NCBI GenBank assembly: GCA_905178155.1
Contig: CAJINV010000016.1
Span: 1,269,386 to 1,333,385, forward strand
Reading direction: 5' to 3'
Length of the DNA stretch: 64,000 nucleotides
Source: Amoebophrya sp. A120
Lineage: Eukaryota; Protista; Dinoflagellata
The notes under the pieces are model-generated. The model had not been told where the DNA came from. It did not search any database and saw only the letters and a program-made list of their open reading frames with translations. The first letter of the stretch is position 1. Each line of letters starts with the position of its first letter. Of the stretch, positions 1 to 56,461 are shown piece after piece. Both the position numbers and the translations under genes were made by a program.

Positions 1-3000
1 TGTAGCTTAAAACCGTGGGGTCGGTTGTGTGGACTTTTTCGACGACAGAGTCTAACGAGTCTCTTTCCGGAATCAAATTTTTCAATTGCGGAAACACGTC
101 CCAGCTCGGTTTGGGAATGAAACGTTTGTTCTTGATCGGCTTCTCTGGTAATCCGGTGTCTTTTTGAGTTTGGTTCAATTTTCCATAGTAGTCGGAGGAC
201 TGCGAAGCTCCGGAATCCGAGTCGTAGATCCCGTGTTTCATGAAAAGCTGCTGCGCTGTATCACAAGAAAAAGTGTTAACGTTAGCGGTTTTCACAGAAT
301 GCAGTCACGCATGACAGTTTTTGCCCAATATGCTTGCTATGCATGACAAATTTGGGCACCTTTTGTGTTGCATTACTGCATCACAAATTCGAATTCCGTT
401 AACCTTAACACTTTTCCCTGTGATACGCTGATGTTTGGTCATCTCCTTCTCCCCGGAGCGCCTTCTCCTCGGCTTCCAACCGATGTCTTTCCTCCTCGAC
501 GTGATCCGCGTGTTTCTGCAACTCGGATTCGTAGAAGTGGGAGTTCTTCTCCGCTTCGAGGCGTTTCTGTTCCGCTGCTTTTGCTTCCTCTGCCGCTAGC
601 TTCGCTTCTTCCTCTCGTTTTGCGTCGGACATGAGGGAGGAGAGGAGTTTTTCCTGCTCTTGTCGGTACTCCTCGTCGGTATCGAGAGGTTTCTCGTCTT
701 CTGCCGCATGATCTTCCTCCGCTTCAATAGCTTCGCCCTGAGCTGCTGCTGCAGCAGCATCCGCAGGACCACCAGCTTCTGCTCCGTTCGCGTCGCCATC
801 GCCTGCAGCAGGATTAGCAGCTTCCGCGTCTGCCATCTGCTCCGCAGTGGCTGCAGGGTCGTGATCTTCGCCGAGATTCTCCTGCGAAAAGAATGACGAA
901 ATTGCTGACTTTTTCTCTTTTTTGTTCATTTCGGAGATCGTCTTCGCTTTCTCCACCACTGCTTCTGGATCGGATTCTGCGTTTTCCAATTGCTGAATTT
1001 CCCAAGCAGATTTTTCCACCTCCATTTCTTCGGCGTCTAACTTCACTTCTATGACCGCGTGATCGAGTAACTGCTTTGTCTCTTCCTCCGCATCTTGCTC
1101 TTTCGGCTCCTCGTCCTGCTGCGCAGCACCTTCGTCACCGTCGTCCGGAGAGGACTTAGCTTTCTTTGCAACAGGTTTAACATTAGCATCCCCGCCAACT
1201 ACTGCAGCCAGTTCTTCCGTCAACCTCGCCTCCAACTTGGAAACTTGCATCTTCCCTAATTCCTCGATTTTCATTTTCGATTTTTTTTCCTGCAGTCGCA
1301 GTTCCAAAATCGCGCTCTTGTGCTTCTCGATCCTTTCCTTCACAAGTCTTTTCCTCTCCTTTCTCCTCTCCTCAGAAGATTCCTTCGCTTCTTTCAACGT
1401 GGTTAATTGCCCCTGCATATCAAATGCAAAAGCGTCTGGGCGGTCTGGAAGATTGCCAGGTTTGTCATGCACATTTTGCATGACTCCTGATGTCTGTGAT
1501 GCATGCCCTAGCGTCACAGATTTTGTGAGGGCCTCCTGATGCCTATACCACATGACAAATGCTCTTTCCGTGTAGCAAAACTTGGATTCTCTTTGCTGCT
1601 CATGCAATACAGATTTTTTCAAAATCCAAAATCAGCATTACAAGTTGGATTCTTCCAGACCCAGACATTTTTACATTTGATACTGCACGTCATTCGTCTG
1701 TTCCTCACAGAACTGCTTAAAATCCTCCGCATCTACCCACGCTTCTATCGGGGCGGTCAACGTATCCGCAGCACCGGACTGTTGGAATTGCAGCGCCAAG
1801 CTGGTTATGCACGGTAAATTTCCTCCTGCGCAGGTACAAATGCGGTTTCTGCATGGCAAAACTTGGTTTCGATCCTAGTTTAGCATGACAAGTTTTGCGC
1901 TCCAAATTAGTGAAATTTGTGATGCATCTGGTACATTTACGGGAAATTTGTATTGCATAGTGGTGACGTCAATGGAGGATGGTGCTGTTTTTGATTTGTC
2001 CTCTCTAACAAGAACAACTCCTCGACCCTCGTATTTCGCAGTTCGGTACTTCTCCCGACTCTCTAACTATCAAATGCAAAAGTGTCTGGGTCTGGAAACT
2101 TGTAATGCTGCGTTGGGACTAGTGAATGCTCTGTAATGCCCAGCCAAGCATGAGAAATATCTGCGCTTCGTTGTGTTGCGTTTTTCGCATGACAAACTGC
2201 GTTTTTGCATAACAAACAAAAGGGCGTCTTCTTGGACACGCATCACAAACTTTTTGGTCATCCCAGACAAGCATGACAAATCGCGCATTCTTCCAGACCC
2301 AGACATTTTTACATTTGATACTAACCGCCACTTCGCGAAATCGGCGAGGAAGTCCGGTTTTTTGCTCTCACTTGCTCCAGGTCCAGCAGCCGCTGCAGAA
2401 CCTCCCGCGGTGCTCCCGTCTAGCATGAGAGATTTCGGCAGTTCGGATTTCACAACCTCTTCCACGGATACTTCCGGGACTTCGACCGGCAGATCCCCCG
2501 GATGGGGTTGTGATTCCACGTAGGACTCTATCGCGTTGTCCAAAGCCCTCAGTCCGACGAGCAGCACTTGGTCCTGGTCCGTTGGAGTCTCCATTTTGTC
2601 CGTCGCGGGTGTGACCTGGGTGGAAGGACGCTGCGACTCGGGTAAATCGCTTGGTTTATCTCCTGCTTCTTTCTCCAACAGGTCCCGGATTTCGCCCGCT
2701 TGGAAGTCGCCAGACTGCTCGCCCACTGTTCCATCAACTAGATTCACTTGTTGCGTGGTCGGTGGTCCACCTACTTTTTGCTGTATCACCACTGGCTCTG
2801 GGATGTAGACGACGCATTCCCTCGCCCGCTTGATGCTTTCCTCGTCTATCCTGTGTAAAGACGTCCCCACCCCAGAGTTGTCATGCTAAACAAAATGCGA
2901 CACACTTTGCCCCCCCATTGTAGCATGGCCGCAGATGGCTTGCCACGCAGGGCGGGTGGGTCAGGCGGACACCGAAATGCCATCACCATCATCTCCCGGC

Positions 3001-6000
3001 CACTATATCCCAACTCTGTTTTCGCCAACCAACCATACTGCGCCAACAACCATACTGTGCCAACTTGTGCCAACTTGCCAACAGAACAACGCCTCACTTT
3101 TATGCCAACAATTCCTACCACTGATTCTCGCAAACTTCCAACTCGCTACCACTATAACGGGAGTATACAGCCAGGCTCACAACAACAAGAAAAAGCTGCA
3201 GCCTGCGGCAAAACCCGTAATTCCTGTCTGGATGAATGCATTCACTGGAGACACTAAGCGACAAGCGCCAGCCTGAAGTGACGTTTAAACAACCAAGTTA
3301 AAGGTAAAAGATGCGAGATTGAATACTGATCTTCCTGATCGCTAGACTTGGCGTTCAAGAAGCATGCTTTCCACATGACCGGAAGCTCGAGGCACAGAAA
3401 TACAATTGGCAAGGCAGCACAAGTAGAACACGACTCTGCACCCAATCCGCAGGCAGCACAAGAAGAAAATGACTCTGCACCCGAACCGCTGGGCTCACGG
3501 AACCACCGGGTCTATTATCGGTTTCCTGCTTCGTGGGCACCCACTTGGATCGTTGTCAGGGGCTGCTAACTCGAAGGCGATCCAGTCAGGCGTCGTTCAC
3601 AGCCTCAGCGGCGCCCGACTAGCTACCCGTCCCGGGTACTTGCGTCTCCGCCGACAAGTACTGAAACTCGTGCAGCTCGGGAACCCGCGACAGCCGGAGA
3701 TCGGGGGAAGTGGTTTTGCCCGCGCGCCGCCCCTCGGCGGCTTCTCGCTACCCCGGCTTCGACACCCTCGCGCGAATACCGCCTGAGTCCTCGTATTCCG
3801 TATACTCTAGGCGAGTGCCATCCGAAGGTGAAACATGCGACTTCCACCGGCCCGTTCTAAGGTGGAGGCGATCCGGTGCGACCCGAGCCTTGCCCTTCAA
3901 CACATATGCACGTAGTCGCCAGCCTACTGCATCGCAGTAGCGCCTCTCCTACGGAGCTGCATTACACCTTGCCTCAAAGTTCTGTTATCGTGAGCTCTTG
4001 TCCGCGCGCCTAGATTGGAGGAAGATAATCTTAGAGAAAAACTACATAGCTCACTAGCTTAGCAGGGGGACCAGGCGAGACGGATGCAGTAAAGCCTGTT
4101 GCTCGCTGTCTTTTTATGAACTGCTTCTGTTCAAAAACCTTAGGAGAAATGAGCAACGCACCAGCCTAGCACGGGAACAAGGCGAGACGGATGGATCCAA
4201 TAATAACGCCGCTTTTGGTTCGTGTTGCGCGTTGTGGAATACCAAAACTTATCAGCTCACGGAAACCTACATGGACATGTTTGAGAGGCCTTTTACTGAG
4301 CGACTACTCAGACTGATTCGGGGGGGGCTGGCGGTCTGGACATCGGGCCAGGCGGGGAGGCTGGGGGAGGATCTGAGGACTGAGTGGGCGTCCTCCCTGG
4401 CTGAACGCACGTCCTCTCCTCTGGTGCGGCGACTGACACCACGATACTGCTCCGCCGCTCCGCAGCACGGCCCTCGTCGTCGACCATAGTATGATGGCGT
4501 ATTCTCATCTGAAAGAGGAGGCAGAACACGCATGGGATCTTGTCGCTAGATTTTTATATGTATGTGGGCACTTGCTCACGTGCTTGCATTATCAGGGACG
4601 GCGGGATTGCTCTTACGAGGGTGTAGTGTATCTGATTGGGCCTGGCGTGGCCTTGCCTCCTTCCTAGCGCATGGGAAGAGTTTGCATATCCTGCAGCATA
4701 GCGTCCTAAGAGCAATGCCGCAACGCAACGCCAAAAGATGCAGAACATAGCGAAAACCGCATGACAAGAGAGCACGTCGAGCTTCTACCATCTTGCGACC
4801 CTTACATCTCCCGCGTTCTGCCTGAGGGGGAATGGATAATTTAGCCCGTCTGCACGGAGCCTGTCGTCGTTGCTGCTTGCGAGGGCCGTGCCGCCACCCC
4901 GGTCGTGCTACTAACCCTTTCTGGACGAGAGGCCCGACGCGCAACGAGCGTCGGGAGAGTCAGAAGAAGTTTTCTTCTATCATTCAACGACGCGGGCGAG
5001 GCAACTTCGCCAGGAAGCGGAGACCTCGCATCTTTATCTCTCGTGGAAATGCCTCCGGAGCCGACCACTGCCCCTCTTCACGCCGCTTTGCTTGGCAGGG
5101 AACAAGGTGGTCGCATCTCGCACAACCTGAATGCCCAACTCGAGGCTCGTCGTGGTTCGCCCACGCGTGTAGGCGCGTCCATTGTGATTTCTTTTTGGCG
5201 ACGCGGGGGCTATGTTGCGTGCTCTACCGGCGCCGTGGCGTCGTAGTGAGTGTATGTCTTGTGCGCCAGCACGATTTCCCTCAGTGGGGCGGCGTCCAGC
5301 GGGCCTAGGATTTGAATTGGCGTATTGTCAGAATTTGTGGTAATCAGGAGTATTGATGCTGATACTTCAGCAGCAAGTGCTTCCAGCACTACATGATCTC
5401 CCCAACATTTGTCTTGGGAATGCTGGTGGATGTACTCTGCCCACTCGCTGTCGGAGCCGACGAACGGCTGATAGTGTGCGCGGCGGAGGATGAGGCTCTG
5501 AATGGCACGACGCCGGAAATGGTTGTAGTTTGCTTCTGACCCAGTAACCATTCTGCTAACCGCCCGACACATGCAGTTTCCATCGCCGATCACTTTGTCT
5601 AGGCGGAGGCCCCGCCCTGCGAGGCGTCCCCGTAGTCTGGCTTCTAGTCGCGCGTCTGCCTCAGCTTCCTTGAGGGAGATCTCCACAGCTTGATCCATCG
5701 CCGATCGCTTCCCAAGTGCTGCATCCTGGCTAGGAATGTTGGAACCGAAAACCCGCTGCGGGATCGTCTGCGGCCGACTTAGGTGCAGTGGACCGGGAGG
5801 TAGGCGCACTTGCTGGAACTCGTGGACAGGGGGGGGAGACGGGCCCCCATTAGTTGCTACCGCTGGGCTTGGGGGCTGCATCTGTGATGGTGCTTGCCGC
5901 TCCCTGGAGCGGCTTCTGACACGGGAGTCGGCGTTTCGCCAATCGGCGACTTTACGGGGGCCACCGGGCGCGGCCCTGTTTGGCCTCTTCCAGCAGAGCC

Positions 6001-9000
6001 TAGCGCGAACATCTTCGATTTCTGCCTCCGGGACTTGCGTGTGCCCGGGCTCCGCTGTGTACATGCGGTGGACCATTGGTGGGACGTGGGACCGGAGACC
6101 CGGAACCGCGGACGGGTCTTGTGTTGCTGAGGGTGGCGGCGCACGCATGCGCGAGGCCTCCACCATGTTGTGAAATACCTCCGCTGCCCGGTCGATGTTC
6201 TTCTGTACTTCGGGGTCTGGCATGACATCGTCCCGAGGCTGGCGAGCGGGGGCTTCGACAGGCCACGTTCCTTTGGGCGGGGGGGGAAGACCTATGAGGG
6301 TGAGGAACACCCTCAACACCTCAGCCGGCTTTTTCATGATCTTCGAGACCGATGGCAGCACCTCTCCCGCCTCCAGCGGAAAGTTGTCGCACATGGCCTT
6401 GCACTCCAGAGTTAGCACATGCTTTGCAAATTGCGAGATCAACACTTGCCGGCCTTGCGACTGAGATTGCCTTTTTTCTCCGGCCTCCGGGGGAGACGGC
6501 GGAGGGGATTCGCTCGTCGGCTCCTGTAACGCAGCCGCCGCGCGATCTATCGAGCCAAACTCCTCTTCGTCCACCGCCATGTCGTCCGCGCCCTGGCTTG
6601 GGTGCTGCGACTCTGCATACATCTGTTGCGAGAAACACACTGCAGCATCTAGCTTCTTGCTGCATAAGCCACATTTTAGGTGAGAGGAGCCGACTACACT
6701 CCTGGCAGCACGCGCTGCTTCCCTTCCGTCGCCCGAGCAGAGACTCCATACGATCCACTGCGACGTGGGGGTGAGGCCGCGAAGGACACGGCGGGCGTTT
6801 CCTAACTGGGAGGCGATTCTCCCTCGGCACGCTCCTGTTTTTGATTGAGCGGCCCGAGTTTGTAGCTGCCGCGCTACTTCCGCCCGCAGGCACTTGCGGG
6901 CGAACTCCCGCAACTGCCGTAGCGGAACGCGCAGGCTTACGTAGTTCGTCAGCGGCTCACTCGGCAATAATGTAGACTTCTGCAAGATGTCGGCCTCGCT
7001 GTGCGGGGATATCCCCGAGTGCCCAGGGCACCAGTGGAATATGAAGGTGATGTCAGGGCGCCGGTCCGCTAGCTTCGTGATGGCCGCCCGGATTTCTTGC
7101 CATGTTTCCTCCGTGCGGAGGGACTGAATGTTCTCCAGCGCCGGGCTGGCATCGCACTGGAAGATCACGAACCTCAGGGCCGGGTCCCAAATCGGCGACA
7201 AGTCTTCGTCTAAGCTGTCCGCCAGCATCAGAACTGCCGCTGCGTGGGCGCCTGACTCACCCCAAAACGTGGTCAGTGTGTGTCGCAACCTCATTGCTAG
7301 AGCAAACTTACCTTCTTCGTCGCAACCCCTCCTCATGACCACCGTCCCCATGCGCTGCTTGGGGCCGGGCCCAGGTTCTGCACCCGGATCGTCGCCACTA
7401 TCCGTTGCCACCCAGAGGAGAGCGGGCCCCAGGGACCTTTCTAGGCCTCGAAATTCGTCGCGGACCCGGGCCGCGACTTCTGGAGTGTTAGCTTTACTGA
7501 GCGCCAGGTCGTATTTTTGGAAGACTGCGGACGCAGGAAGAATGTGGACGTTGCTTGGCAGGGGGTCAGCTGGGATGAGGTTGTGCGAAATAGGGAGTGA
7601 CGCCCAACCCTCTCGCCTCATGTTGAAGACATCCTGCACCTTTGATGACCGGGCGAACTCCGCGTCGTCCAGGCCTATCGCCTGCACGCAGAGGGTAGTG
7701 CGCTCACCTAGCGCCGCTGTGGAGGGCACTACGGCCCCCGCGCTGATGAAGGTGCTGTACGTCGGAGCCGTGAAGGAGATGCGAAGCATGCGGCGCAACG
7801 CTGTCTCCGCGATGTCGTCCAGTTTGATCAACGCGCCCGGACACAGGAGCGACTTTGCGCTTGCCATGTACTGCAGCGCGTTGAATGCCTTCTCGTGGTA
7901 TTTGTTAATTGCTGCAAGCGGGGAGGCGGCTGCCGCATCTACGGCGTCCTCGTCTGTGGACGAGCATGAGAGGACTCGGCGGCGTTGGTCCTCGAAGTGT
8001 TGCTCCCAAGCCTCGGGGTTTACTGTAAGTGGCATCCCGAGGACTGTGATGTAGTTCGCCTTATTATACCTACGAAACAGCCCGGGAAGCCGGACCGACT
8101 TCGGCGCATCGGGGTCCAGTTCCACCTCGACTTCCGGTGGGCAGAGCGTCACGCCGTTGCTGAGCGTAACACGAATCCGCTTCAAAAACTGCTCCAGTTT
8201 TTTCTCGTCACCGGCGGCATGTTCTGGCGAGCGAAGAACGGCCATTCTCCAGTCCGAGACCGGGTAGGGGATTGACAAGAGCTTGTTGCCCCTGTCCTGC
8301 AATTTCTTCACCATCTCGCCCTCGGATTCTGCTGTTACGAAAATTGCGATGTCGTCGCAGTAGGCCGCGACGCACTCCCCCAGCGTGGAATACAGGCCGG
8401 CGGCGATGAGGTGCTTTTCCACACAAGCCCGGAAGAGGGCAGGCGATAACAATGTGCCCTGGCCCAACCCATCGCAGATAGGAAACGCCACCCCCATCAG
8501 CCCGTCCACGGCAATCCGCACCGTTCGCCCAGTCATCCAGTAGCACACTGCCTGCATTACTTGCCGGGATGCCCCCCGCTCTAACAGAACCTGAAGGACT
8601 TCGAGGAGGCTGCAATTTTCGAAGCCCCCCGTAACGTCCGCGACTATCACCGCGACGTATTTGGCGTTCCCTTGCATGGTGCGGATCAGGGCTCGCAGCA
8701 GGCCGACGGCGGGGGATAGCCCCGGAATGAATGCCGTATTGTCTCGGAAGACATTGAGAGACTGCTGTAGTTCGCCGTGCAGGATGCTTTCCGTGAATTT
8801 ATCTTCGACATTCAGCATCGAAATAGGCCGCCAATAGCGACCCAAAAACTTCGAAGCCCCTTTTTTGTTGTGCTTGTAAAGCCAAGACACTAGGTATTGT
8901 TTCGTCCAGGTAGGGGGGTCGTGGTAGTCGTTGAGGGCGCGGCATACTATATCGCACAGAAGGACACAGAGTTCTAGGGAGGCGAGCAGCAGCGCGGGCG

Positions 9001-12000
9001 GGACGCCGTTGCTGCCTGCGGCGGCGTGGGGGTTCAGCCGCTTCTGCGCTCGCATCGCCATGTCACGGGTAGGCTTCAACGGTCTAGATGGTGCCGCTGC
9101 GATTAATTTCGCCGCGGCCGCCGCCACGTCGTGCTCCTCTTCTGGGGTGCGCAACAGCCCGGCTGGCTTGTTTTCGCATAGCCGCACTCGGAATTGGTTC
9201 ATCGTCTCTTCTGTCGACGCGGTGAGGGATCCATCCCCACGTAGTAATGCGAGGTGAACGGAGGGAAGACGGGACTTGTTGTGTGGGGCTTTTGCCCGAT
9301 CAAGTGCTGTCGCCAAGGTGTCACCCGTGAAAGACGGCTCCTGCCCCGACGCAGCCGCGGATGCATCGGAGAGAACCTGGCCCAGCGTTTCCTGGTCTAT
9401 GCTGCTCCAGTGGAATACCTTTCGCCGGGTGAGCGATTGCGGGCAGGAGATGCTGTCTGGCCGGTCTTGCTTTTCTTGCCACCCGTCTGCGTTGGCGCCT
9501 AGGGCCGACCCATCCTGCCGCAGTTCGCAATCGATGCGAAGATGAGCGGCCCCGTTCATCGTAAGGTAGCGCGGTTCGACGAGCCGCGTGCATAGCACCG
9601 TTTCCGTGGTCCGAGGCTTGAGCAGGACGACGTCCGGCTGGGATTCCCCGGAGGGGAAAGTTACATCGTCCGCCTGCAGTGCGGAGGTGAGCCCTTCTGC
9701 TGTCGCGAATTGTGACAGTTGGCTTTGCAGCCAGTTCCCGCGGGGTGTGTCCGCTAGCACAGGGCCCGTGCTGGCGTTTAAGTCCCCGGCGATGCCTACC
9801 ACCTCCGCGGCATTGCTTCTCGCGAAGTTCATGAGGCTTTCGCGCTGCCCTCGGACTGGTAACTCTGGAACGCTGCATGAGGCTGGAGGAATGTAGCCGG
9901 CCAAGAGACGCCCCGCGATGTCCTCGTGGGCTACTAAGATGCAGGCCATGTTCGGTGCCCCTGGGATGGCCGCTGCGATTGCGTGGTCTGCAGGCCGGAG
10001 AGAGTGCGCCACTAACACCATGGCTCGGGGGGCGGACCAGATGAAGAACCGCCCAAGGAGTGTGCGGTAAATCAGGTCCCGGATTGGTTGCTGCAGTGCT
10101 TGAGTCGGCGTGTCGGATTCCGACACGACGACTACCAGCGCCCGCGACGCGTTGATCTCATGCACCAGCAACGGCCACTGTGAAGTGAGCGCGCGAGACA
10201 TGTTTATCGCCATGATCACGAAGCGCCGCCCTTTGGACCAGTCCTTGTCCGGCTTGGGTAGCCCGCCGGTGAAGTTCAGTCGGAGGCTGGCCAAGTGGTA
10301 CGCGGTCGATGTAGTTATTTCCCTTCTATTGTCTGTTTCCCCCCTGCGAACGCCCGGCGCCAGAACTCCTTGCGCCAGCTCCGCTAACTTCGCTAGCATC
10401 GCGCTCTGCAAGCGGCCGTGGCGCCCGATTCTGCACAATATCACATGTGCCAGCAGTGACGCTGGTTGTGCAGTTTCTTCTCCACAATGTGAACAGACGT
10501 AGAGCGCGTGCTGCTGAAATTCGATCTGCGACTGGGACTGGCTAACCGGAACGCGGAGGTACACCGGATAATCTGAGGAGGGGGCGGGGGAGTCGCTTTC
10601 GCCGGGTTTCGGGAACCATTTCGTCGGCCTTGGCTCGTCCGGTGGCGCCCGAGTGACTTCTAAAAAGGAGGCCAAGTACGGGTGGACCATCGGGTTGCTC
10701 GCCTGTGTGGCTTCTAGCCGGCCCGTTGCTGCTCGCACGCATTCCGCACAACGCCCATGCTGTTCGAGTTTGTTTACGGCAAGGTTCCACCGGCTGAGGC
10801 CCCGCGTTGGTGCGCAGATCATGTCCTCGACCTCTGAAGCGTCGGCCGCGGGCCGGTCGTGCATTGACCAGAAGAAAGTTCCCGGCGCCGCTGATTCGAT
10901 CTGCCGCTTCAGGCACCCGTGGCCCTTCGTCACCACTGCCTTGTCCTCGTCGTTGTCTACGCACCTGATTCCCGCGCTGATGAGCGCCTCTGGGTTTGGC
11001 GGACGGTCACACCAGTCCGAGGTTGTAAAGCCGCCGTAGTTGTGAATAGCCGCGGCCCCTTTGCGCCTCGGCATGCGGCGCGGATCGATTCTGATGCCGT
11101 GGTCTGTGCGGCGAAGAGCTACACCGTCGCTGGCTGCACTCGATAGCGGCCAGACGCCGGCGTAATCCGGGAAGCAGTCTGGGATTTCTGCGAGAGGACC
11201 CTCGCGGCAGGAGGTCGCCCGCCATACCGCTAGCGGAATTTCTGTTTCGTAGAACTTTTTACCCCCCGGTATGCACACCCCTCGGCGAAGCGCTTCTTCT
11301 GCAGCCTGTATCCTCTTAGACTCGCGCTCCCCCTCCTTCGCCGGGCGCGACATTTCCGCAAGGCAATGCGGGCCACATTCTAGTAGTAAGTTGTGCCGCT
11401 GTGCAGAACGGAATGCTGCTGCTGTGTGCTTCGGTACCATGCGCGCCACTTTTTGCAGTTTGGTCAGTGACCCCGCTGGAAGAAACGCCGGCGTTAGTAC
11501 GAACGCCTTGTTTGCTACGTATGTATCTGGGATCGCGTCCTCGTCTACCGCCGGAAGCGGGAGACCCGGCGGCCCGTCGCCCACGTTGGCATTTGGCGCC
11601 TCTGGGACGGGGGCGAGCTGCTCGAGCCGCTTGATTACAGCCGCGCGTATCGCTGCCATTGCCAACAGAGGCACGACCCACATCGTCGCTCTTTCTGCCC
11701 ACTTCCTGCGTGCTCTGTGCCCGACGAGCCCGCGTCTAGAGCTGTGCGGTGCACTGAAGGATTAGTGTCTTCGCTTTCTGTCTTGTGCCAGCCTATACCA
11801 ATAATAATTTAACTTCTATACATCAGTATATCACCAGAGTTGTCATGCAGATTTACCATGACAGGAACATTTGTGATGCGCAACCCCATGACAGGCATTT
11901 TCAATCGTGTTTGGGAACTTGTGATGCTGTAAACAGGATCAGAAGGTCGATTTGTGATGCGGCTTTCCTTGCTAACTTGCACTACCTTACGGACTGAAAC

Positions 12001-13400
12001 TTGTCATGCGTGACTCCTAAAACTCCTAGGTTTGTGTTGCAAAATCCCCATCCTGACTCTTGTGTGGGTACGTTTTTACTCAGGATATCGTCCATGTCTT
12101 CTTCATTGTCGAACGGAAACGCGTTTTCCACCTGGATCGGGGAAAAGACCGCGAGCCAGACCTGCTGGAGCAGCTTCAGCCGGAGCCGGATGTTCGCCGC
12201 GATCGTCATCTCGACGTTGTCGAATCGAGTGCGGAGGTGGAATTTTGTGGAGGAATCGGTGGAATTCAGAGCGGTCTGCTGCAGCACTTCGACGTAGAAA
12301 AATCCCTGATAAAGTAAAATGTGCATGAGCATAGCTACCATGTGTTCTCTGGTGCCCAGAGGCTCTTCAAACACAACAAAAACTGAACTTTTTCATCATG
12401 CCTGATAAACCCGAAATAAAATAATCTGTACCTCCTTCCCTTCAATTTTTTTCTGTTCCCATTTCCCGAACAGCTCCTCCCCGTTTATTTTTCCGCAGTT
12501 TTCAATTTCCTCCAGCAAGCACTTCTTCACGGATTCCTTCCCGTCATCGAGAAACAAATTCTCCTTCAGCATCCTCATCAAATCGATAAAAAATCGCTCC
12601 AACGGGTGCCGATAGCTCGCTTCCAACAGCGCAGAGTCCCAGAAGTACACCCTATCCTGTCGCATATCGTTTCTCGCCGACCAGGGTTTCGGGAGCTGGG
12701 AGTTGAGTACAGGTTTGAGAATTTGGAACAGGGTTTGATCCTATGAGAGTGCACAACTCCCCTTCCCCCTCATTTGTCATGCAAAGTATCTAATTTACGC
12801 CTTGCCTCTTGGCACTGTTAGCATGACAAGTTCTGGCAGCCCAAATAGCACAGCACTTCTGTTCAAATTTGTCATGCAAAACCTGTATTCTTGCTGACGC
12901 TTGTATTGCTGTTCATGCAATACAAATGAGGGGGAAGGGGAGTGGTGCCCTCTCATAGATCCTTTCTGGACTGTTTCAGGTTCAAGCCGAGGAACATGGC
13001 GTAAGCGTTGGGGTTCATGAAGCGAGAGACGGGTATATCACAAGAAAATGCGTAAACGTTCGCGGTTTTCACAGATTGCAGCGATGCATCACAAATTTAG
13101 CCTTACTAGCCTAGTATGCATGTTATGCATGACAAATTTGGGCGAGTTTTGTGATGCATTGCCGCATCACAAATTCCGTAAACGTTAATACTGTTTCTTG
13201 TGATAGGGTAATTCCGGGTCCTCATTCATGACCGTTTTGGAGGGGGACATGGCTTGGTGAGAACCCTCGAAGTACTTCTTGTTTGATGGTGTTTGCGACG
13301 CGTACAACGTGGAGTCCAGCTGGCTCCTCGTTGTGCAAGAGGAAGAAGTTGCCGGGCTGGTGCCGGTTAGGACACCGGTTGGGAGGACGAGACGGTCCAT
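1..13400 (-). CDS. Multi-exon host gene (3' end runs off the window): WW-like/CEP164-N-like domain followed by acidic coiled-coil protein
   Basis: Starts at ATG 13400 (MDRLVLP). The frame stays open to base 1 after removing introners 13036-13205, 12742-12957, 2847-12087, 2068-2320, 1806-1959, 1418-1682 and 259-425 (each with one TSD copy) plus a GT-AG intron at 12363-12431. The joined sequence YAMFLG...LPKPWSARNDMRQDRVYFWDS...SYRHPLE resembles the WW-containing N-terminus of CEP164-like proteins (by eye). Confidence 0.75.
259..425. mobile_element. Introner (family F2), 167 bp
   Basis: TIR tatcacaagaaaaagtgttaacgtt / aaccttaacacttttccctgtgata; TSD cgctg (254-258, 426-430); frame restored DQTSA|QQLF. 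Confidence 0.92.
1418..1682. mobile_element. Introner (family F1), 265 bp
   Basis: TIR tatcaaatgcaaaagcgtctggg / cccagacatttttacatttgata; TSD ctgca; frame restored DVQ|GQLT. Confidence 0.92.
1806..1959. mobile_element. Introner (singleton), 154 bp
   Basis: TIR tatgcacggtaaatttcc / ggaaatttgtattgcata; TSD ctggt/gtggt; frame restored. Confidence 0.8.
2068..2320. mobile_element. Introner (family F1), 253 bp
   Basis: TIR tatcaaatgcaaaagtgtctgggtctggaa; TSD ctaac; frame restored WRL|ESREK. Confidence 0.92.
2887..11833 (-). mobile_element. Non-LTR retrotransposon (I/Ingi-like architecture), ~8.95 kb, apparently full length
   Basis: 15-bp TSD ccagagttgtcatgc at 2872-2886 and 11834-11848; GC-rich; single 2157-aa ORF; 150-nt 5' UTR; ~2.3-kb 3' region; no poly(A) tail. 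Confidence 0.9.
5210..11683 (-). CDS. Retrotransposon polyprotein: Zn finger - APE endonuclease - reverse transcriptase - RNase H - OTU-like cysteine protease
   Basis: Zn finger CSHC...H...C. APE motifs VSESD, YIPP, AGDLNA, TF...QPDVV (~9540-10220). RT motifs WRPISML, QGTLLSPALF, YCDD (8351-8362). RNase H motifs ATDSG, GE, QCDA, WCPGHSG...EAD (~6970-7420). OTU motifs GDGNCMCRA, WGD, HYDA (~5230-5600). Confidence 0.93.
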   Translation of the reverse strand: MWVVPLLAMAAIRAAVIKRLEQLAPVPEAPNANVGDGPPGLPLPAVDEDAIPDTYVANKAFVLTPAFLPAGSLTKLQKVARMVPKHTAAAFRSAQRHNLLLECGPHCLAEMSRPAKEGERESKRIQAAEEALRRGVCIPGGKKFYETEIPLAVWRATSCREGPLAEIPDCFPDYAGVWPLSSAASDGVALRRTDHGIRIDPRRMPRRKGAAAIHNYGGFTTSDWCDRPPNPEALISAGIRCVDNDEDKAVVTKGHGCLKRQIESAAPGTFFWSMHDRPAADASEVEDMICAPTRGLSRWNLAVNKLEQHGRCAECVRAATGRLEATQASNPMVHPYLASFLEVTRAPPDEPRPTKWFPKPGESDSPAPSSDYPVYLRVPVSQSQSQIEFQQHALYVCSHCGEETAQPASLLAHVILCRIGRHGRLQSAMLAKLAELAQGVLAPGVRRGETDNRREITTSTAYHLASLRLNFTGGLPKPDKDWSKGRRFVIMAINMSRALTSQWPLLVHEINASRALVVVVSESDTPTQALQQPIRDLIYRTLLGRFFIWSAPRAMVLVAHSLRPADHAIAAAIPGAPNMACILVAHEDIAGRLLAGYIPPASCSVPELPVRGQRESLMNFARSNAAEVVGIAGDLNASTGPVLADTPRGNWLQSQLSQFATAEGLTSALQADDVTFPSGESQPDVVLLKPRTTETVLCTRLVEPRYLTMNGAAHLRIDCELRQDGSALGANADGWQEKQDRPDSISCPQSLTRRKVFHWSSIDQETLGQVLSDASAAASGQEPSFTGDTLATALDRAKAPHNKSRLPSVHLALLRGDGSLTASTEETMNQFRVRLCENKPAGLLRTPEEEHDVAAAAAKLIAAAPSRPLKPTRDMAMRAQKRLNPHAAAGSNGVPPALLLASLELCVLLCDIVCRALNDYHDPPTWTKQYLVSWLYKHNKKGASKFLGRYWRPISMLNVEDKFTESILHGELQQSLNVFRDNTAFIPGLSPAVGLLRALIRTMQGNAKYVAVIVADVTGGFENCSLLEVLQVLLERGASRQVMQAVCYWMTGRTVRIAVDGLMGVAFPICDGLGQGTLLSPALFRACVEKHLIAAGLYSTLGECVAAYCDDIAIFVTAESEGEMVKKLQDRGNKLLSIPYPVSDWRMAVLRSPEHAAGDEKKLEQFLKRIRVTLSNGVTLCPPEVEVELDPDAPKSVRLPGLFRRYNKANYITVLGMPLTVNPEAWEQHFEDQRRRVLSCSSTDEDAVDAAAASPLAAINKYHEKAFNALQYMASAKSLLCPGALIKLDDIAETALRRMLRISFTAPTYSTFISAGAVVPSTAALGERTTLCVQAIGLDDAEFARSSKVQDVFNMRREGWASLPISHNLIPADPLPSNVHILPASAVFQKYDLALSKANTPEVAARVRDEFRGLERSLGPALLWVATDSGDDPGAEPGPGPKQRMGTVVMRRGCDEEGKFALAMRLRHTLTTFWGESGAHAAAVLMLADSLDEDLSPIWDPALRFVIFQCDASPALENIQSLRTEETWQEIRAAITKLADRRPDITFIFHWCPGHSGISPHSEADILQKSTLLPSEPLTNYVSLRVPLRQLREFARKCLRAEVARQLQTRAAQSKTGACRGRIASQLGNARRVLRGLTPTSQWIVWSLCSGDGREAARAARSVVGSSHLKCGLCSKKLDAAVCFSQQMYAESQHPSQGADDMAVDEEEFGSIDRAAAALQEPTSESPPPSPPEAGEKRQSQSQGRQVLISQFAKHVLTLECKAMCDNFPLEAGEVLPSVSKIMKKPAEVLRVFLTLIGLPPPPKGTWPVEAPARQPRDDVMPDPEVQKNIDRAAEVFHNMVEASRMRAPPPSATQDPSAVPGLRSHVPPMVHRMYTAEPGHTQVPEAEIEDVRARLCWKRPNRAAPGGPRKVADWRNADSRVRSRSRERQAPSQMQPPSPAVATNGGPSPPPVHEFQQVRLPPGPLHLSRPQTIPQRVFGSNIPSQDAALGKRSAMDQAVEISLKEAEADARLEARLRGRLAGRGLRLDKVIGDGNCMCRAVSRMVTGSEANYNHFRRRAIQSLILRRAHYQPFVGSDSEWAEYIHQHSQDKCWGDHVVLEALAAEVSASILLITTNSDNTPIQILGPLDAAPLREIVLAHKTYTHYDATAPVEHAT
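12742..12957. mobile_element. Introner (family F4), 216 bp
   Basis: TIR tatgagagtgcacaactccccttccccctcatttgt; TSD gatcc; frame restored. Confidence 0.92.
13036..13205. mobile_element. Introner (family F2), 170 bp
   Basis: TIR tatcacaagaaa...aacgtt; TSD gggta; similar to 259-425; frame restored ELP|VSRF. Confidence 0.92.
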
Positions 13401-15375
13401 TTTGCTATTGCTGTCTGTGATTAATTTTGTTGCGGAACAATAGGAGCAAAGAAACTGAACCGGTTGCCGGAAAAAGACGGTGATTAAACACCAAATGACG
13501 ATAGACAACTCTCCATTTGACCGCGACGAATCGAGAAGTAGGTCGGCAGCGAAATAAGCACAGCGAAGCTCTCACCTCGTAATCGTCTAGGTGTACGTTT
13601 CCCTGAACAATCACTCACTTCTGCAACATTATTTCTTCTACTCTTGACAACATGAACCAGAATCAACGAATCATCGACCTCCCCGAATTGCTTTACCTGG
13701 CGAGGAAACGACTATGACCAAAATTCCAGAGCAGCGAAAGCTCGACAATATGACGATGGAGAACAGAACGATGTGACGAGTAAGCTATTTTTTTCACGGG
13801 GGGCTCTCCGATATTGGTGTTGCATAGCGGTCTCTAATTCGACCAGCAGAATGTTGTGTCTCAAGATAAATGATACAGGCGTCAGCAAAAATCTACTCTA
13901 TTGTGTGAAGTTCTAATACTGCTCAAAGCCAAATTCTTTTTTCCAACGATATCGTAACATCTAGTAATGGTAGCGCTCCTCGCGCTTCGTATCCAAAAAA
14001 TTTTAAACATTATTAACACTTCTGAGAAACTACAAATACATGAACTTATCCTCCTTCAAGAAACTACTTCAAATTCAATATCAAACAGATATGGGCCAAC
14101 GCCAATTCAGCCGTGCAATGGATAAATTTTTTTTTACTTAGTTGAGTACTTCTTTTGAGTCCGAGGCAATTAAGCCAAACAAAGTTCCAAAGAAGATGAC
14201 CATGTCAATGATAGACGTTCTGGCTGCTGGCTGTTTCATTCTACATTCTTTCGAAATGCAGCGCAATTTTTCTCGCGGCTAACGACTTCTCGAGATCAGG
14301 GCGTAACCAGGATTGACATTTTTGAGATTTATCATTCAAAAAGTTGTTGCGCAGAAACGCCTTTAAAAGCACCATCTTCCTCCGCCTGGCGTTCACTCCT
14401 TACCGGATCTCGTCCGGATGGAAAAAAACTGCTGGTACGCAAACCATCTCGATAGAAGAACGAATACGACACATGCATAGGCATACCCTCTCTTTGTCCC
14501 TTCGCTCTGTATGCTTGACCAATCTCCGATATAGCCATGCAGCCATCACTCATTCTCACTAGAAAGACTAATCTTTTTTTTTTGATACTTGGGGCACACC
14601 TCGCCTCTACCTCCGGCCAAAGCCAAACATTCATGTCTTCAAGATTCTGGAGATGTTGATTGAGACTTCATAGTTCCTCACTCAGACCCAAGTTGTAACA
14701 TCTTGCTGCATGATTCCTCAGACAACGAGATCGAGAACGATAACAAACTGCCACAAGTCTGCGGCTAACCAAAAATACCTGAGTGCCGGAGTCCTCCTTC
14801 CTGCGACTGTAGATCATGGTGCCTGATTGGTGGTAGCGGTAGGATAATTGCTAAGATTTTATATAAGGTCGTCGTCGTCGTCGTCGATATTATATAAGGA
14901 CTTTTTCCCTTGATGTTGCCTATGTTGATACAGCGAAAAGGAAAAACTGGGAGGCGGGTCAGGTTTGTTACATTAACATTAGGATTAGTTTCGCTTTTGA
15001 TTCGTTCTTCGTGGCTGATACTTGTAGTGTCGATTGTAATTCGTTCGTTGTAATTCTTGAATCAATGCCAATCATTTGAGAATCTTTAGTTTGCAGTTAT
15101 TTCGTCGCGGGTAATTTATTATATTTTCATTGCTGATAGTAGATAATGATAAATCAGTAGCGAACTACTTGTAGAGATTTTTTCTTCAAGTAGAAATACT
15201 CAAGCTACAGCTTGTTGTTCGAAGTTGAGACTTTTCGTTCCCCCCAGCTCTGACACCGACTTCATCTCGCAACAACTGCGCCTCCAGAAGATGAAGATGC
15301 TGGAGAGGTGGAGTCGTGTTTACTCGTCGACTAACCGTCAACAGCAGCTCACGAGCTGCGACCATTGTGTTGGAA

Positions 15376-39319: not shown

Positions 39320-42300
39320 CTACTGCGGTCCCTCCCCGCCGCCCTGCGGGTTCGTCGATTATCCTGAGTAAAAACGTACCCACGCCAGAGTTGTAATGCA
39401 GATTTGCAAAGACTGGAAGACTTGTAACGCGCATCCCCTTGAGAGCCATTTCCAATCGTGTCTTGGAATTTGTGATGCTGTGAACAGGATCAGCAGATGA
39501 ATCTGTGATGCGGCTGCACTTGCTAACCTGCACTACACTGCATAGTGCAACTTGTCATGCGTGACTCACAAAACTCCTAGGCTTGTGTTGCAGAATCCCC
39601 ATCCTGACTCTGGTGTGGGTACGTTTTTACTCAGGATATCGATGGCCGCATGTTCAGTCCGATGGTTCTCGGCGGCAGTTGAAACCCGGAGAACCTGCTG
39701 GCCCCGGTGCCGAATTGCAGTGGTTGCGTCTGGAGCATGCCAAACTGCATCGGTCTTGCTTATATGCTCTGCAAAAGTATCACGCTCGTACTAATTGCAA
39801 TCATGCATGACAAATCTTGTTTCTTAGCCAAATTAGCATTACAAACTCCATTTCTCCTTCTGAGAAAATTTATATTGCGATTTCTACTAGGACGATGCTT
39901 TTGCAATGCATAGCAGCGATCCCAAACTGCGGCCGGCTCGGGGCAGTGGCGGTCGTCGGAGCAGTGGTGCGGATGTTCGACGACGTTGTAGTCGGGCCAG
40001 CGTTAATATTTGCTGTAGTTGTACTGCCGACGCCGGTAAACTGAGGCTGTGATGATGCTGCTGCGCCGGCACCGCCGGTGACTCCTGCTCCTGCAGCTCC
40101 GTTCCCATTCTCCGACCCGCTGATACTGGGAATCACCGCCGCACCTCTGCTCGGCACACTTGTTCCCAGCGGAACCGGGGGTGTTGCCGTGCCACTCTGG
40201 TGCGCGGGTACGATCGGTCCCCGCGGGGCCGGCAGTGGACTCGTGTCTTTCCGCTGCCCACGGGCGCTGCTCTGCCAGTAACTGCTGGTGGTGGGGTTTG
40301 TGTCTGTAGTGGTCGTCGGGGGGTTCAGCTTTTCGTTTAGCGCATTGAGGTTCGATGCGGTCAATTCCGCGTTCGGATTGATGGGCGATGCCCCGCTCAG
40401 CTGTCTTTGGACAACACTACTCGGCTCGGCTTGTCCTACTGGCGGGTTTACGATCATGCTACCCGCACCGGATGATTTACTCCCGGCTCGGTGCGGTTTC
40501 TGGAGACTGCCGGCGGCGGTGGAGGGCGGGGGTAGTGCAGAGTTGTTGTAGTTATTCATCATTGCATTTGCAGAAGTGGATGACGATGCTGCGCCGGACG
40601 TGGAAGATCTCCCTACAGCTGCTGCTGCTGCACTAGTAGTCGCTGCGAGAAGAGACGAGCTCGAGCTACTCGGCGCGGTTTGCGGAACCGTCGGACCGAC
40701 GATCATTGGGGGGGAAAGAGCAGGGGACTGGGCACCGGAGCCCGGGGTTTGCTCCGTGCCAAACTGCTCGTGAATCCAGGCAGTCCAGTTCTCCATCGGA
40801 ATTTTCTGCTCCTGATAAACGATACAATTTCAACATACACGGCGGACTTACTAATGTTGACCCATGAGCATGCCAGATTATTTTGCATTTGTCATTTTTT
40901 TCGCATGACAAGTTGTTCGTACAACAGCGAACTTTTTCAATACCAGGCAGGTCTTGTAGATGTCGGAGATCAGGGTCTTCTTAGCCTTGTCCTTGTCCGT
41001 ACACTTGAGTTTCACTGTCAAGCTATGAACTGCAAAAGTATCGCACTCGTATAAATGCATTACAAATTTCCTCAGCATGAGAGATAAAATTTGTATATGC
41101 TGATTTGCCCTGGGAACAAGATTTGTGATGCAAGACTTGCATTTATACGAGTACGATACTTTTGCACTGGATACAAACACTGCGAGTAGAACCATCTTCG
41201 CTTGTCCTCGTCCGTCTTGCAGGCGTTCATGCTGGTGGGATTTGTGTTGCAAAACTGCAAAAAGCACTAGAGAATGCGAATGTAGTTCCTCGAATGACAA
41301 ACTTCTCATCGAAAAAAAAAGAAAGCATTGAATTTCAACAATATCATGATACTCCGTCTGCAAACTTGACAGATTCGCGACGTCATTTATCGGCGGCGCC
41401 AGTCCGGTGCCGCCCCGACTCGTGGCGGTAATATCCGTTGCGGAGATTTCGGTACCGCAGTAACTCGACAACCCGACAACGGAGGTGACCTCCGACTTCG
41501 CACCGTCCGCGCGTTCGTCCTGAGAGTTGTCGTTAGAGACAGTCAGTCTGTTGCGTATTTTGGACGAGAGAAGATGTGTTTATGCGAGACAGTAACAGAA
41601 CGTGCTTGTGCCGCAGTGATGTGAATCACAGCCGACCACGTTTGTAAAAGCGTTGCTCAACATCTCCTAGTCGTACCTCATCCGCATCCTCTAGGTCATC
41701 AGCGTCTTCCGGTCGTGTTGCCAACTGCCCGGCCTCTATCTTCAATTTTCGGAGGTATTTCTCTTTTTCTCGCACGATGGTGTGGACCCTGTTTATTTGA
41801 TGGAGGAAAGACATTTTTTCGCCGTGGCTGTAGTCGCAGCTGCTGATGCACGAAATAATCACATGCAAGCAAGACAATCGAACACTTGGCCTTGTATAGC
41901 CGCCACAAACAGATGATGACAATACCGTTTCGAAATGACGTATTCCTGCGGCACCAGTGTGAGGGCGGAAGACACAATGGACGCTAAAGACACCATATCC
42001 AAGAAAAAAACACTGTAGGTGTAACTTTTTTGGAGGAACAGCATTACAAATTCGTCTGGCACGACAGCAAAAACCTGTCATGCGCAGATAGCACGTCACG
42101 AAAACGCCCTTTAGTGGGCGCTACGAAGCATGCTTAGCATGACAGACGCAATCGTCTTGCATGTTGCGCATCACAAATTTACACCAACAATGTTTTTTTC
42201 TTGGATAAACCACAGTGTGCTCCGACAAAACGCCGATGTCCACACACCCCATGGTCCACCCTTTCGCCGTATTAAATGCAAATGTGTCTGGGTCTGGAAG

Positions 42301-43846
42301 AGTGCAAACTTGTGATGCGCATTTGAGAACACAGAAAAATCTCTCATGCATAGGTAGCAAAAGGCGCCCACTTTCTGTCACCAAAATGGGGCATTTGTCA
42401 TGCGGATTCAGCATTGCGGAAGCTTCTGGAAAGCTGTGACGCTAGAGCTTCCATGCCAGACCTTCTGCGTCATGCAAAAGCTGCATGATAACTCTTCCAG
42501 ACCCAGACACTTTTGCAATCCATACGCCGTTTCTAAATGGTATTTCACCTGCGTCAAATGCCTTGTCACTCCTGCCTTCAGCTGGTTTTTCTCAATCCTC
42601 TCTTGCAGCGTCTGGGCAAAATTTGAGAGCCGGCTGTTGTAGTTCTCGACGCGCTCCACGGGAGGCTGTTTTGATGTTGGGTTTTTTTTGCATCGCACCG
42701 TGATCAGTTTCATTTATTTTGCTTTTTGGAATGGACGCATGTCATGCGCAGCAGCAGGAGCACATCCACATCAGATAATTTTGCTGGTATAATACCAACG
42801 ATTCCAAGTGCAGCGGTGTCCCACTCTTTCCCAACAACTTCGAGTTTTCCGTCTCCAACGTATTCGTGTTCAAACACAACGTCACCGTTTCCGTATTGGC
42901 GTCTGCTTTCGGCAGTGCGATCCGATTCTTCGCGACCGTACTTACAGTGCTGCCGAACGTGCTGGCTGGCGTGCCGACTGTGCTGCCGGTTAGACCACCT
43001 GTAGTCCCGAAGATGTTCTGGCTACTACCCGACAAGCCGTTTTTGGAGCTCCCCGCCGAGCTACTGGAGGCGCCGCCGGCCGCGGAAGAGCCGGTGAGAT
43101 GGGAGGTTTTTTGCACTTCGAGGCGTTTCAGGTAGAATTCCTATCCTGAGTAAAAACGTCCCCACCCCAGAGTTGTCATGCAAATCTGCATGGTAAAAAT
43201 GCTTCTCATGCGGAGCCCCATGAGAGGCATCTTTTATTAGTCGCGTTTCGCAATTTGTCATGCTCCAATTGGCATGCTGCGCTGGATCTGCGATGCTGCT
43301 CAACTAGCTAAACAGGATCACACTATGAGGCCAAACTTGTCATGCAGAACTCCCAAAACTTGGAGATTTGTGTTGCAGACTTCCCATCTGGACTATGGTG
43401 TGGGGATGCTTTTACACATGATAATTCCTTCAGTTGGTTCACGTTCACCCGTTTCTCCGCGCCGCTGGGGCGTTGCTTCTGCGCAGACTTTGCTCTCGCT
43501 TTCACCGCAGCCTGCGAGTTCAGCTGCATCTCCGCGTACCGTTTCGCCAACATCTTTGCTTGGTTGTTGATCTGGGTCGTGGATAGAAATGCACTCAGAT
43601 GTAGTTCTTGTTGATCGTAAACGAGGTAAATACGGAGGACGTTGTTCCTGCTCCGTCCCCGTACAGATCTTCGGCCGTCGCCTGGCTAAGAAAACGAAGA
43701 TGTAGATGAGGGGCAAAATAAGAACAACACAAAACATGAAGATAACAAGGCCAAGACGCTTTTTTGGAAGCAGCTCTCCGATAATGTACTCTCTGACAGA
43801 TGATGCTTTCGACTCGCCGCAGTTGCCACTGCAACGAGTGATCCAT
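39320..43846 (-). CDS. Multi-exon hypothetical protein with Ser/Thr/Pro-rich C-terminus
   Basis: Continuous frame reconstructed across six introners and several GT-AG introns (e.g. 42666-42795, 41232-41352, 40812-40943). The start codon is uncertain. Confidence 0.65.
39360..39638. mobile_element. Introner (family F3), 279 bp, uninterrupted
   Basis: TIR tatcctgagtaaaaacgtacccac; TSD tcgat; colinear with 2847-2886 plus 11849-12087. Confidence 0.93.
39763..39912. mobile_element. Introner (family F5), 150 bp
   Basis: TIR tatgctctgcaaaagtatc; TSD decayed (gctta/gcagc); frame restored. Confidence 0.82.
41024..41173. mobile_element. Introner (family F5), 150 bp
   Basis: TIR tatgaactgcaaaagtatcgcactcgtataaatgca; TSD caagc/caaac; frame restored. 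Confidence 0.88.
41996..42207. mobile_element. Introner (F2-related), 212 bp
   Basis: TIR tatccaagaaaaaaaca..gt.ggtgtaa; TSD cacca/aacca; frame restored. Confidence 0.88.
42270..42524. mobile_element. Introner (family F1), 255 bp
   Basis: TIR core gtgtctgggtctggaagagt; TSD cgccg; frame restored. Confidence 0.9.
43142..43423. mobile_element. Introner (family F3), 282 bp
   Basis: TIR tatcctgagtaaaaacgtccccac; TSD attcc; contains an empty ccagagttgtcatgc site; frame restored. Confidence 0.9.
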
Positions 43847-52891: not shown

Positions 52892-52970
52892 AGCCGCCTC
52901 TACTAAAACTAGTAAGCGTGGTCAAGTTATAGCTCATGAATAGCTCCAGCTGCACTCTTAAAGTTCTGGA
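52892..52970. repeat. Structured ~80-bp repeat, copy 1
   Basis: agccgcctctacta..tagta.gcgtggtcaag...tcatga...tccag-ctgcactcttaaagtt-ctgga; recurs at 54921, 55069 and 56385. Confidence 0.9.
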
Positions 52971-53114
52971 ACGCCGCCCCGCAGCCAAGCATTAGAAGAC
53001 GCAAAGCTGTTTCGACGGCTTGCGTTGAACGTGTCGGGAGCAGCGCAGCCAGGGAAATCGAAACACGCGAATAGCAAGTCCAACACCGGCGTGCCCGGGG
53101 TAACCCAGTTTTCG

Positions 53115-54889: not shown

Positions 54890-55000
54890 AGCCGCCTCTA
54901 CTAGAATTTAGTAGTTAGTTAGCCGCCTCTACTAGAACTTAGTATGCGTGGTCAAGAGTTAGCTCATGAATAGCTCCAGCTGCACTCTTAAAGTTCTGGA
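54890..55000. repeat. Structured repeat, copy 2 (54921-55000), preceded by a partial duplicate (54890-54913)
   Basis: Direct sequence identity with copy 1. Confidence 0.9.
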
Positions 55001-55068
55001 ACCCTATATACATGCGTATTTGCCCTGGGTTTTTGTATGACACGAGGGAGGGGCGCAGGTTCATCGTT

Positions 55069-55145
55069 AGCCGCCTCTACTATAGCAGTAAGCGTGGTCA
55101 AGTTTTAGCTCATGAAAGCTCCAGCTGTACTCTTAAAGTTCTGGA
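55069..55145. repeat. Structured repeat, copy 3
   Basis: Direct sequence identity with copy 1; the loop of the first hairpin varies. Confidence 0.9.
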
Positions 55146-56384: not shown

Positions 56385-56461
56385 AGCCGCCTCTACTAGA
56401 ATAGTACGCGTGGTCGAGCTCTAGTTCATGAAAAAGTCGGCTGCACTCTTAAAGTTCCGAC
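56385..56461. repeat. Structured repeat, copy 4 (divergent, compensatory stem)
   Basis: Stem tccag/ctgga is replaced by gtcgg/ccgac around the same 16-nt loop. Confidence 0.88.

Follow-up and report, generated by a model that had tools for sequence, protein, structure and literature searches.

Structure of the nested locus

The 64,000-nucleotide stretch of the Amoebophrya sp. A120 genome analysed here (contig CAJINV010000016.1, positions 1,269,386 to 1,333,385 of the forward strand; hereafter the window) contains a host gene in which a coding exon is interrupted by an introner of family F3, which is itself interrupted by an 8,947-bp retrotransposon lacking long terminal repeats (a non-LTR retrotransposon). 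We consider it likely that this element inserts at F3 introners by sequence-specific target-primed reverse transcription (TPRT) and leaves the host mRNA together with the introner. The features of the locus, including target-site duplications (TSDs), terminal inverted repeats (TIRs) and untranslated regions (UTRs), are given below in the sense of the host gene, followed by two empty introners used for comparison; X4 is a set of RNA-like contigs and P0001 an ortholog of the host gene from another genome.

12088–12304, minus strand: host exon upstream of the composite intron (...FPFDNEEDMD), from X4 record 22 (12088–12304 + 12431–12736) and the P0001 alignment
12088–12092: introner TSD TCGTC, right copy, 5 bp, a sequence repeat
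11849–12087: right part of the F3 introner, 239 bp, with the right TIR at 12056–12087 (blastn against 39360–39638, 84%)
11834–11848: 15-bp retrotransposon TSD at the element 5' end, a repeat crossed by a single-copy short-read contig
2887–11833, minus strand: full-length non-LTR retrotransposon, 8,947 bp, without poly(A) tail, in the sense of the host gene (delimited by TSDs; first Met aligned with the starts of Amoebophrya AT5.2 relatives)
11684–11833, minus strand: 5' UTR, 150 nt, with an AT-rich start (no Rfam match)
2887–5209, minus strand: 3' UTR, 2.3 kb (longest open reading frame 143 aa; read depth)
2872–2886: 15-bp retrotransposon TSD at the element 3' end, with the predicted first nick after ...TTGTCATGC on the plus strand (same junction in locus L009 and twice in locus L073 of a related genome)
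2847–2886: left part of the F3 introner, 40 bp, with the left TIR at 2847–2878 (sequence comparison)
2842–2846: introner TSD TCGTC, left copy, 5 bp, a sequence repeat
2321–2846, minus strand: host exon downstream (EESIKRAREC...), from X4 record 17 and P0001 (95% identical)
39360–39638: empty F3 introner, comparison copy (sequence comparison)
43142–43423: empty F3 introner with the same 15-bp target (sequence comparison)

Within the window the 15-mer CCAGAGTTGTCATGC occurs only at 2872, 11834 and 43167, and its first two occurrences bracket the retrotransposon. The two introner parts rejoin to 279 bp, equal in length to the intact copy at 39360, and excision of the 9,246 nt restores the host reading frame ...NEEDMD|EESIKRAREC... 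on the minus strand. The host introner has the properties of Amoebophrya inverted-repeat introners, namely a TIR with a direct repeat of 3–5 nt, membership of a repeated family and a position inside an exon. We confirm that the nesting of host exon, F3 introner and retrotransposon is real; all coordinates of the initial annotation of this DNA were reproduced, as were its three layers with their 15-bp and 5-bp TSDs and its lesion-free host frame, the host exons being intact. Its "identical empty site" at 43142 shares the 15-bp TSD and 38 of the first 40 nt, but diverges after the nick. Insertion "just inside" the ~32-bp TIR did leave both termini in place, although the last 7 nt on the inner side of the left TIR also belong to the TSD, and 5 of 32 positions differ between the left and right TIRs.

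The assembly of the nested unit is backed over the element body and the right junction. A 7,330-nt contig from short-read sample X1 covers 4556–11885 with no differences at a depth of 45.4, passing the element 5' (right) junction by 52 nt; no contig bridging the left junction was present among the X1 matches listed. Because the depth of 45.4 matches that of unique host contigs (41.6–46.2), the body of the element bearing its open reading frame (ORF) is single-copy. In the 3' UTR, 3239–4585 has two differences and a depth of 78.6, equivalent to about two copies; the final ~350 nt, the tip of the element, are highly repeated, with a bin mean of 1,419 that represents summed contig depth and not copy number. 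A single-copy body, a roughly two-copy 3' UTR and a highly repeated tip fit a gradient of 5'-truncated copies. An introner origin of the repeated tip was rejected, its scores being reached by 25/60 and 9/60 shuffles. Elsewhere in the 3' UTR, near the edge of the two-copy segment (4585), there is a weak introner-like stretch with one motif at 4680–4800 (score reached by 1/60 shuffles; five regions tried).

Protein and classification of the element

The element carries a single ORF with the following predicted features, including an apurinic/apyrimidinic endonuclease (APE) and a reverse transcriptase (RT) of the type found in long interspersed nuclear elements (LINEs):

5210–11683, minus strand: single ORF of 2,157 aa from the first Met, without stops (translation; Met aligned with relatives)
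10433–10501, minus strand: zinc-finger-like CxxC...H...C motif, kept in three AT5.2 relatives (weak Pfam zf-C2H2 match, E 0.23; alignment)
9527–10219, minus strand: APE endonuclease domain with INM, SESD, GYIP, GDLN, SQPD and AAH motifs (LINE profile iE 3.9e-8; motif positions)
8309–8836, minus strand: RT core with YCDD (Pfam RVT_1 E 1.8e-13; best PDB matches L1 ORF2p and R2)
6977–7417, minus strand: RNase H domain with the D-E-D-H-D pattern (model matches HIV RT, human RNase H and XMRV RNase H, best E 5.9e-4)
5231–5629, minus strand: C-terminal OTU-like cysteine protease with D/C/H catalytic positions, GDGNC...THYD (Pfam OTU E 3.8e-9; PDB OTUD3 E 1.2e-9)

The element is full length, since the first Met of its ORF aligns with the starts of its relatives. 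Self-blast detected no terminal repeat in the element, and an Rfam scan of 1–14000 gave two chance matches only, with none in the 5' UTR. The APE, RT and RNase H domains named in the initial annotation were each confirmed; the C-terminal OTU protease was missing from it. The APE profile was built from 65 LINEs chosen by RT alone. In this domain the SDH motif reads AAH and the hairpin loop, between T and S, is short (5 residues); a low-confidence model of the fold matches ExoIII, L1-EN, TRAS1-EN and R1Bm-EN (E 1e-4 to 9e-4). Neighbours in the ESM Atlas carried Exo_endo_phos, RVT_1 and RNase_H, at 0.94–0.96. The OTU domain, with a Pfam score of 37.6 bits against a cut-off of 23.3, aligns to OTUD3 and OTUD1 and is a predicted deubiquitinase. 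Just before it lies the stretch MDQAVEISLKE (5666–5699, minus strand), which had no Pfam hit and which we take to resemble the ubiquitin-interacting motif pattern. The N-terminal region (10250–11683, ~480 aa) is conserved in the AT5.2 relatives (32–37%). The N-terminal 480–490 aa or so gave neither a Pfam family nor a confident fold (predicted local distance difference test score <50 for residues 1–486), and may represent a fused ORF1 or a targeting module.

Close relatives of the element among 1,512 protein matches came from Amoebophrya only. The closest six are AT5.2 proteins with 39–49% identity (572–603 bits) and the seventh is an A120 protein with 38%; the remaining matches are generic LINE RTs at ≤72 bits, and RT identity to LINEs outside Amoebophrya is at most ~33%. 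Protein-based locus scans of metagenome contig and viral contig collections yielded no relatives. Word-based homolog searches with the RT and OTU regions also gave no match, which is weak evidence.

Judged by its sequence, the element is an APE-type non-LTR retrotransposon, with an RT, an upstream APE domain and the marks of TPRT, the latter being TSDs of 15, ~4, 18 and 17 nt on copies of 8,947, 134, 51 and 27 nt that have a common 3' end (see below). Members of the Tx1 clade have two ORFs and an APE–RT protein without RNase H, whereas the single ORF of the present element includes an RNase H fold. Ingi/L1Tc and I-group LINEs encode APE–RT–RNase H in one long ORF, and the Ingi/I group also has a 5' hepatitis delta virus (HDV)-like ribozyme signature and a poly(A) tail. 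The element resembles this group in domain order, in its single ORF and as a protist LINE, but it has no Rfam match to a 5' ribozyme and its 3' end is tailless. It also differs from the group in its ~490-aa N-terminal region without known family, its C-terminal OTU domain and its site specificity. Its domain order is Ingi/I-like and its mode of insertion Tx1-like, with membership of Tx1 itself failing on ORF number and RNase H.

Insertion at one base of F3 introners

A scan for F3 termini retrieved 119 stretches of one related genome, corresponding to 117 loci and 827 kb (~712 kb non-redundant), with 78 loci listed with wide flanks and most others with flanks of 300 bp. These loci contain 128 F3 left ends and three further copies of the element, all 5'-truncated:

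L009 1295–1428: 134 nt, 95% identical, at F3 position 40
L073 18063–18113: 51 nt, 98% identical, at F3 position 40
L073 10791–10817: 27 nt, diverged (22/23 over the core, E 0.024), at F3 position 40

Each of the three starts at the last base of the element, in the same orientation and with its own TSD, directly after CCCCA[G/T]AGTTGTCATGC at F3 position 40. With the window's element this makes four copies, all at base 40|41 of F3 introners, with a fixed tailless 3' junction, variable 5' ends, variable TSDs and one target base. Left out of the count were 9/12 fuzzy tip hits (5 mismatches in 20, not extending) and five 16-mer hits away from the tip (E 1.5).

Only three of the 128 F3 left ends are filled. 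Position 40 of F3 accounts for 102 of the 1,559 sites in these loci that match the introner motif TTGT[ACG]ATGC, and the other 1,457 sites held no copy of the element. The probability that all three copies would fall at this position is 2.8e-4 for insertion at any motif, 6e-9 for any F3 base and 4e-13 for random insertion. About 95% of the scanned DNA is non-F3 and held no copy; insertions at other sites were detectable by the method because two other retroelement families were seen in the same loci. Since only 102 of the 1,559 motif sites are F3 position-40 sites (P ~3e-4), the target would be the F3 left-end site CCCCA[G/T]AGTTGTCATGC^A, narrower than the general word TTGTCATGC. Insertion does follow TTGTCATGC, as initially annotated, but in all four copies it does so at the F3 left-end site. 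Within the window, insertion at the end of a motif had a post hoc chance of ~0.0015, a weak case by itself; the targeting that the annotation had held unprovable from one copy is now supported by 3/3 further copies at the identical F3 base. Target-specific LINEs have been defined as those with >20% of flanks in one sequence type (PMC4494074). Here the fraction is 4/4 at F3 position 40, in a small F3-enriched sample.

It is very improbable that the element inserts without preference and that only introner insertions survive selection in a gene-dense haploid genome. Introners are abundant, making up 12.6% of the window before the insertion and 17% of the A120 assembly (PMC7789003), and the two other retroelement families likewise occur mainly within introners, where they occupy several positions. 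Survival alone would, however, allow any introner base, and this explanation is largely refuted by four copies sharing one base and orientation (the P of 6e-9 within F3).

The three further copies are independent events, because the introner bodies of the filled copies diverge (68–83% identical, while the two longer tips are 95–98% identical to that of the window), because their 5' ends and TSD lengths differ, and because a local CATAG variant is duplicated in both TSD copies of the 27-nt insertion. We give correspondingly little credence to a single ancestral insertion spread by introner transposition or gene conversion and later shortened by deletions. Introners are mobile and the left context is common to the four junctions, as such spread would predict, but different subfamilies are represented among the filled introners, the 15-nt TSD of the full copy is shorter than those of 17 and 18 nt, and one TSD has its own local variant in both copies. 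Moreover, the left-TIR variant of three filled copies also occurs in empty ones (T at position 8 in 21/106 left ends). A further candidate, in which the element carries its own left flank by 3' transduction, was rejected, as the variant is present in empty copies.

Introners as a retroelement sink

In the window 80/83 TTGT[ACG]ATGC sites, against ~1.4 expected by chance, lie within 32 introners of several unrelated families, with 2–4 sites per introner. The motif is likely, from this distribution, to be a protein-binding signal for transposition or splicing. An unrelated 5'-truncated retroelement family with (ATG)n tails has four copies in the related genome (L045 7445–7556, L020 6476–6921, L009 6343–6829 and L078 526–1014; 94–99% identical). 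Two of them (L045, L020) lie at the second F3 motif, a further copy lies within an introner of a different family, and the remaining one has an introner to its 5' side. A third, poly(A)-tailed family has two copies (L051 445–657, with a 9-nt TSD, and L028 from ~10810). These are inserted in two different introner families, 3–6 nt beyond TTGTCATGC at the TIR's inner edge. Introners are thus a general retroelement sink in the related genome, and single-base precision is special to the LINE family with the OTU domain. Three A120 introner families, classed as TIR DNA or Unknown, have LINE peptide hits (PMC12130899, supplement file 8, rows 557, 588, 605) and may contain nested LINEs.

The motif may attract several retroelement families, and their presence near it keeps alive a rival in which targeting is real but a protein bound to TTGT[ACG]ATGC (a transposase, splicing or chromatin factor) recruits several retroelements or exposes DNA to them, the endonuclease itself being not very specific. 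We regard such tethering as rather unlikely. It would accommodate the short APE loop, the poly(A)-tailed copies beyond the first motif in two introner families and the (ATG)n-tailed copies at the second F3 motif. It sits poorly with the 1,457 other motif sites that the element family ignored, and with the C25 and C36 shared by all four targets (38/102 F3 sites; P 0.02–0.05), which suggest that bases beyond the motif are read. Tethering would alter the mechanism and not the targeting. As a tentative extension of our preferred reading, a guild of retrotransposons may be aimed at the conserved, TTGT[ACG]ATGC-bearing introner ends, with the OTU LINE using the intron as promoter, harbour and exit, transcription coming from host genes, excision from the non-canonical splicing machinery, and the spliced-out 9.2-kb intron RNA serving as its template.

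Probable splicing of the composite intron

The X4 contigs have the character of spliced RNA, from the same strain or one nearly identical to it. Its record 17 matches two exons without differences, the intervening 908 nt being reduced to 221, the exact exon content, and three neighbouring introners are precisely removed. At the composite intron, record 17 extends 6 nt beyond 2846 and record 22 extends 7 nt beyond 12088 before each stops; in neither contig do these trailing letters align to the introner, which is what joined exons would give. Ortholog P0001, 95% identical, has an uninterrupted EEDMDDESIK at the site. Because P0001 continues through an ordinary intron and, at its end, into an introner, it resembles the translation of unspliced DNA; its genome likely has no introner at this site, which would make the introner young and the LINE younger. 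P0001 also appears to lack four other introners of the gene (window 1413–2320, 12741–13205) and has one where the window has none, indicating fast introner presence/absence turnover between close strains. The TIR duplex of the filled introner is calculated at −34.8 kcal/mol. Other introners here span −32 to −68, a range that includes this value (−55.3 for the copy at 39360 and −32.3 for that at 43143).

The proposal that the unit is spliced out as a 9.2-kb intron gains indirect support from the RNA contigs leaving the genome at both TSD edges and from P0001 reading across, but is not matched by a junction-spanning read; we regard clean splicing as fairly probable. It is unlikely that the element is targeted but that this full-length insertion is very recent and harms the host gene through poor splicing of a 9.2-kb intron. 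Such damage would fit the lack of a junction-spanning contig, the depth of the upstream RNA contig (7.7, against 25.4 downstream) and the five mismatches of the left TIR. Against it, the letters that both RNA contigs carry past the TSD edges are not those of the introner, lesions are absent from the host exons, and the depth difference could be 3' bias.

Several observations weigh against our reading of targeted insertion with removal by splicing. There are four copies only, one of them 27 nt and diverged, and the related-genome sample was selected around F3 termini, with two of the three copies in introners matching the search pattern; the single copy found in flanks only has a P of 7e-5 against random insertion but 0.065 against insertion at any motif. 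Tip copies in the window's own genome are known by depth alone, with flanks unseen. The all-sense orientation is not significant (4/4 filled against 45/72 scorable empty copies). The 5-residue APE loop is unlike those of the specific Tx1L and TRAS1 enzymes (11 residues; PMC1950540) and leaves the source of specificity unexplained, and the predicted proteins of the AT5.2 relatives have no OTU domain. On the RNA side, X4 contains no contig or read across the spliced junction, the identity of its 6–7 trailing letters is not displayed, and the element ORF body has a depth of 0 in this sample, which may lack the LINE; the raw RNA run X9 (16 reads) did not cover the locus.

Proposed mechanism

In the scheme we favour, the APE would nick the plus strand after CCCCA[G/T]AGTTGTCATGC, and the freed 3' OH would prime reverse transcription as in established TPRT, with a second nick up to 15–18 nt away. 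Two short 5' ends have microhomology with the target (TGT in L009 and a C run in L073). Both TIRs and the 5-bp repeat would stay at the intron ends, so that host non-canonical splicing could still remove the unit. Given a hairpin loop of 5 residues, against the 11 of Tx1L and TRAS1, specificity may lie outside the APE, in the N-terminal zinc-finger region, RNA–target pairing or a tether. The element lies in the host sense and may obtain its RNA through transcription of the host, as R2 does in ribosomal DNA (rDNA). We offer co-transcription with the host gene as a hypothesis only, because 45/72 scorable empty copies also lie in the element's sense.

Other features of the window

A non-introner repeat of ~90 bp (GCCGCCTCTACTA...CTCTTAAAGTTC) occurs in four to five copies at 52888–52982, 54917–55157 and 56320–56466. 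The region is intergenic, with GC-rich islands at 44081–44963 and 51758–52513.

Comparison with known systems and implications

The closest parallels to the proposed targeting are Tx1 (Tx1L) in Tx1D, the crocodilian Tx1-Mar/SINEU in Mariner-N4_AMi and Tx1-9_AMi in Harbinger, which are likewise APE-type LINEs at a set place in non-autonomous TIR DNA transposons and have numerous short copies and TSDs of about 15 nt (PMC4494074). The present target differs in being a spliced introner inside coding exons, a harbour within genes, and the element differs in having one ORF with RNase H and OTU domains, an alveolate host and an RT that is ≤~33% identical to those outside Amoebophrya. R1, R2 and Utopia in rDNA and U2 genes share the fixed 3' junction, a multicopy target, few full-length elements and possible co-transcription, but they inactivate the gene copy they enter, whereas the host gene here is likely intact, and R2 and Utopia use a restriction-like endonuclease in place of an APE (PMC4640811, PMC4494074). 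Proteases of ubiquitin-like modifiers fused to transposon proteins are known as OTU in Ginger1 and Helitrons, the only elements for which OTU is named in the available text of PMC2836005, and as Ulp1 in NeSL and Utopia (PMC4640811); here, in contrast, the ORF of an APE-type LINE ends in an OTU domain. F3 shares with described Amoebophrya introners the TIR, the 5-nt direct repeat and the A120 start TAT + 7 nt + AAA (PMC7789003, PMC12130899). LINEs aimed at introners are undescribed in the available parts of these two papers (supplement files 13–14 lying outside the search), and the literature searches, with subscription papers and Repbase Reports outside their scope, returned no listing that describes either an introner-targeting LINE or an OTU domain in an APE-type LINE.

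Introners would offer a LINE aimed at them a harbour in which a 9-kb parasite can reside amid a coding exon. The LINEs known to target transposons enter inert DNA, and those targeting rDNA or small nuclear RNA genes destroy the gene copy in which they insert. Where introner consensus sequences give hits to LINEs, these may be nested guests. The protein of the element is that of a sequence-specific and very divergent LINE, with an OTU domain and a target of ~17 bp, and would be useful for understanding specificity with a short APE loop. The locus also provides a natural test of non-canonical splicing in Amoebophrya: if an intron 33-fold longer with the same ends is cleanly removed, the ends alone define the intron. 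Should the wider guild reading be true, the element would be an analogue of group II introns without self-splicing, and introner splicing would depend on the termini only.

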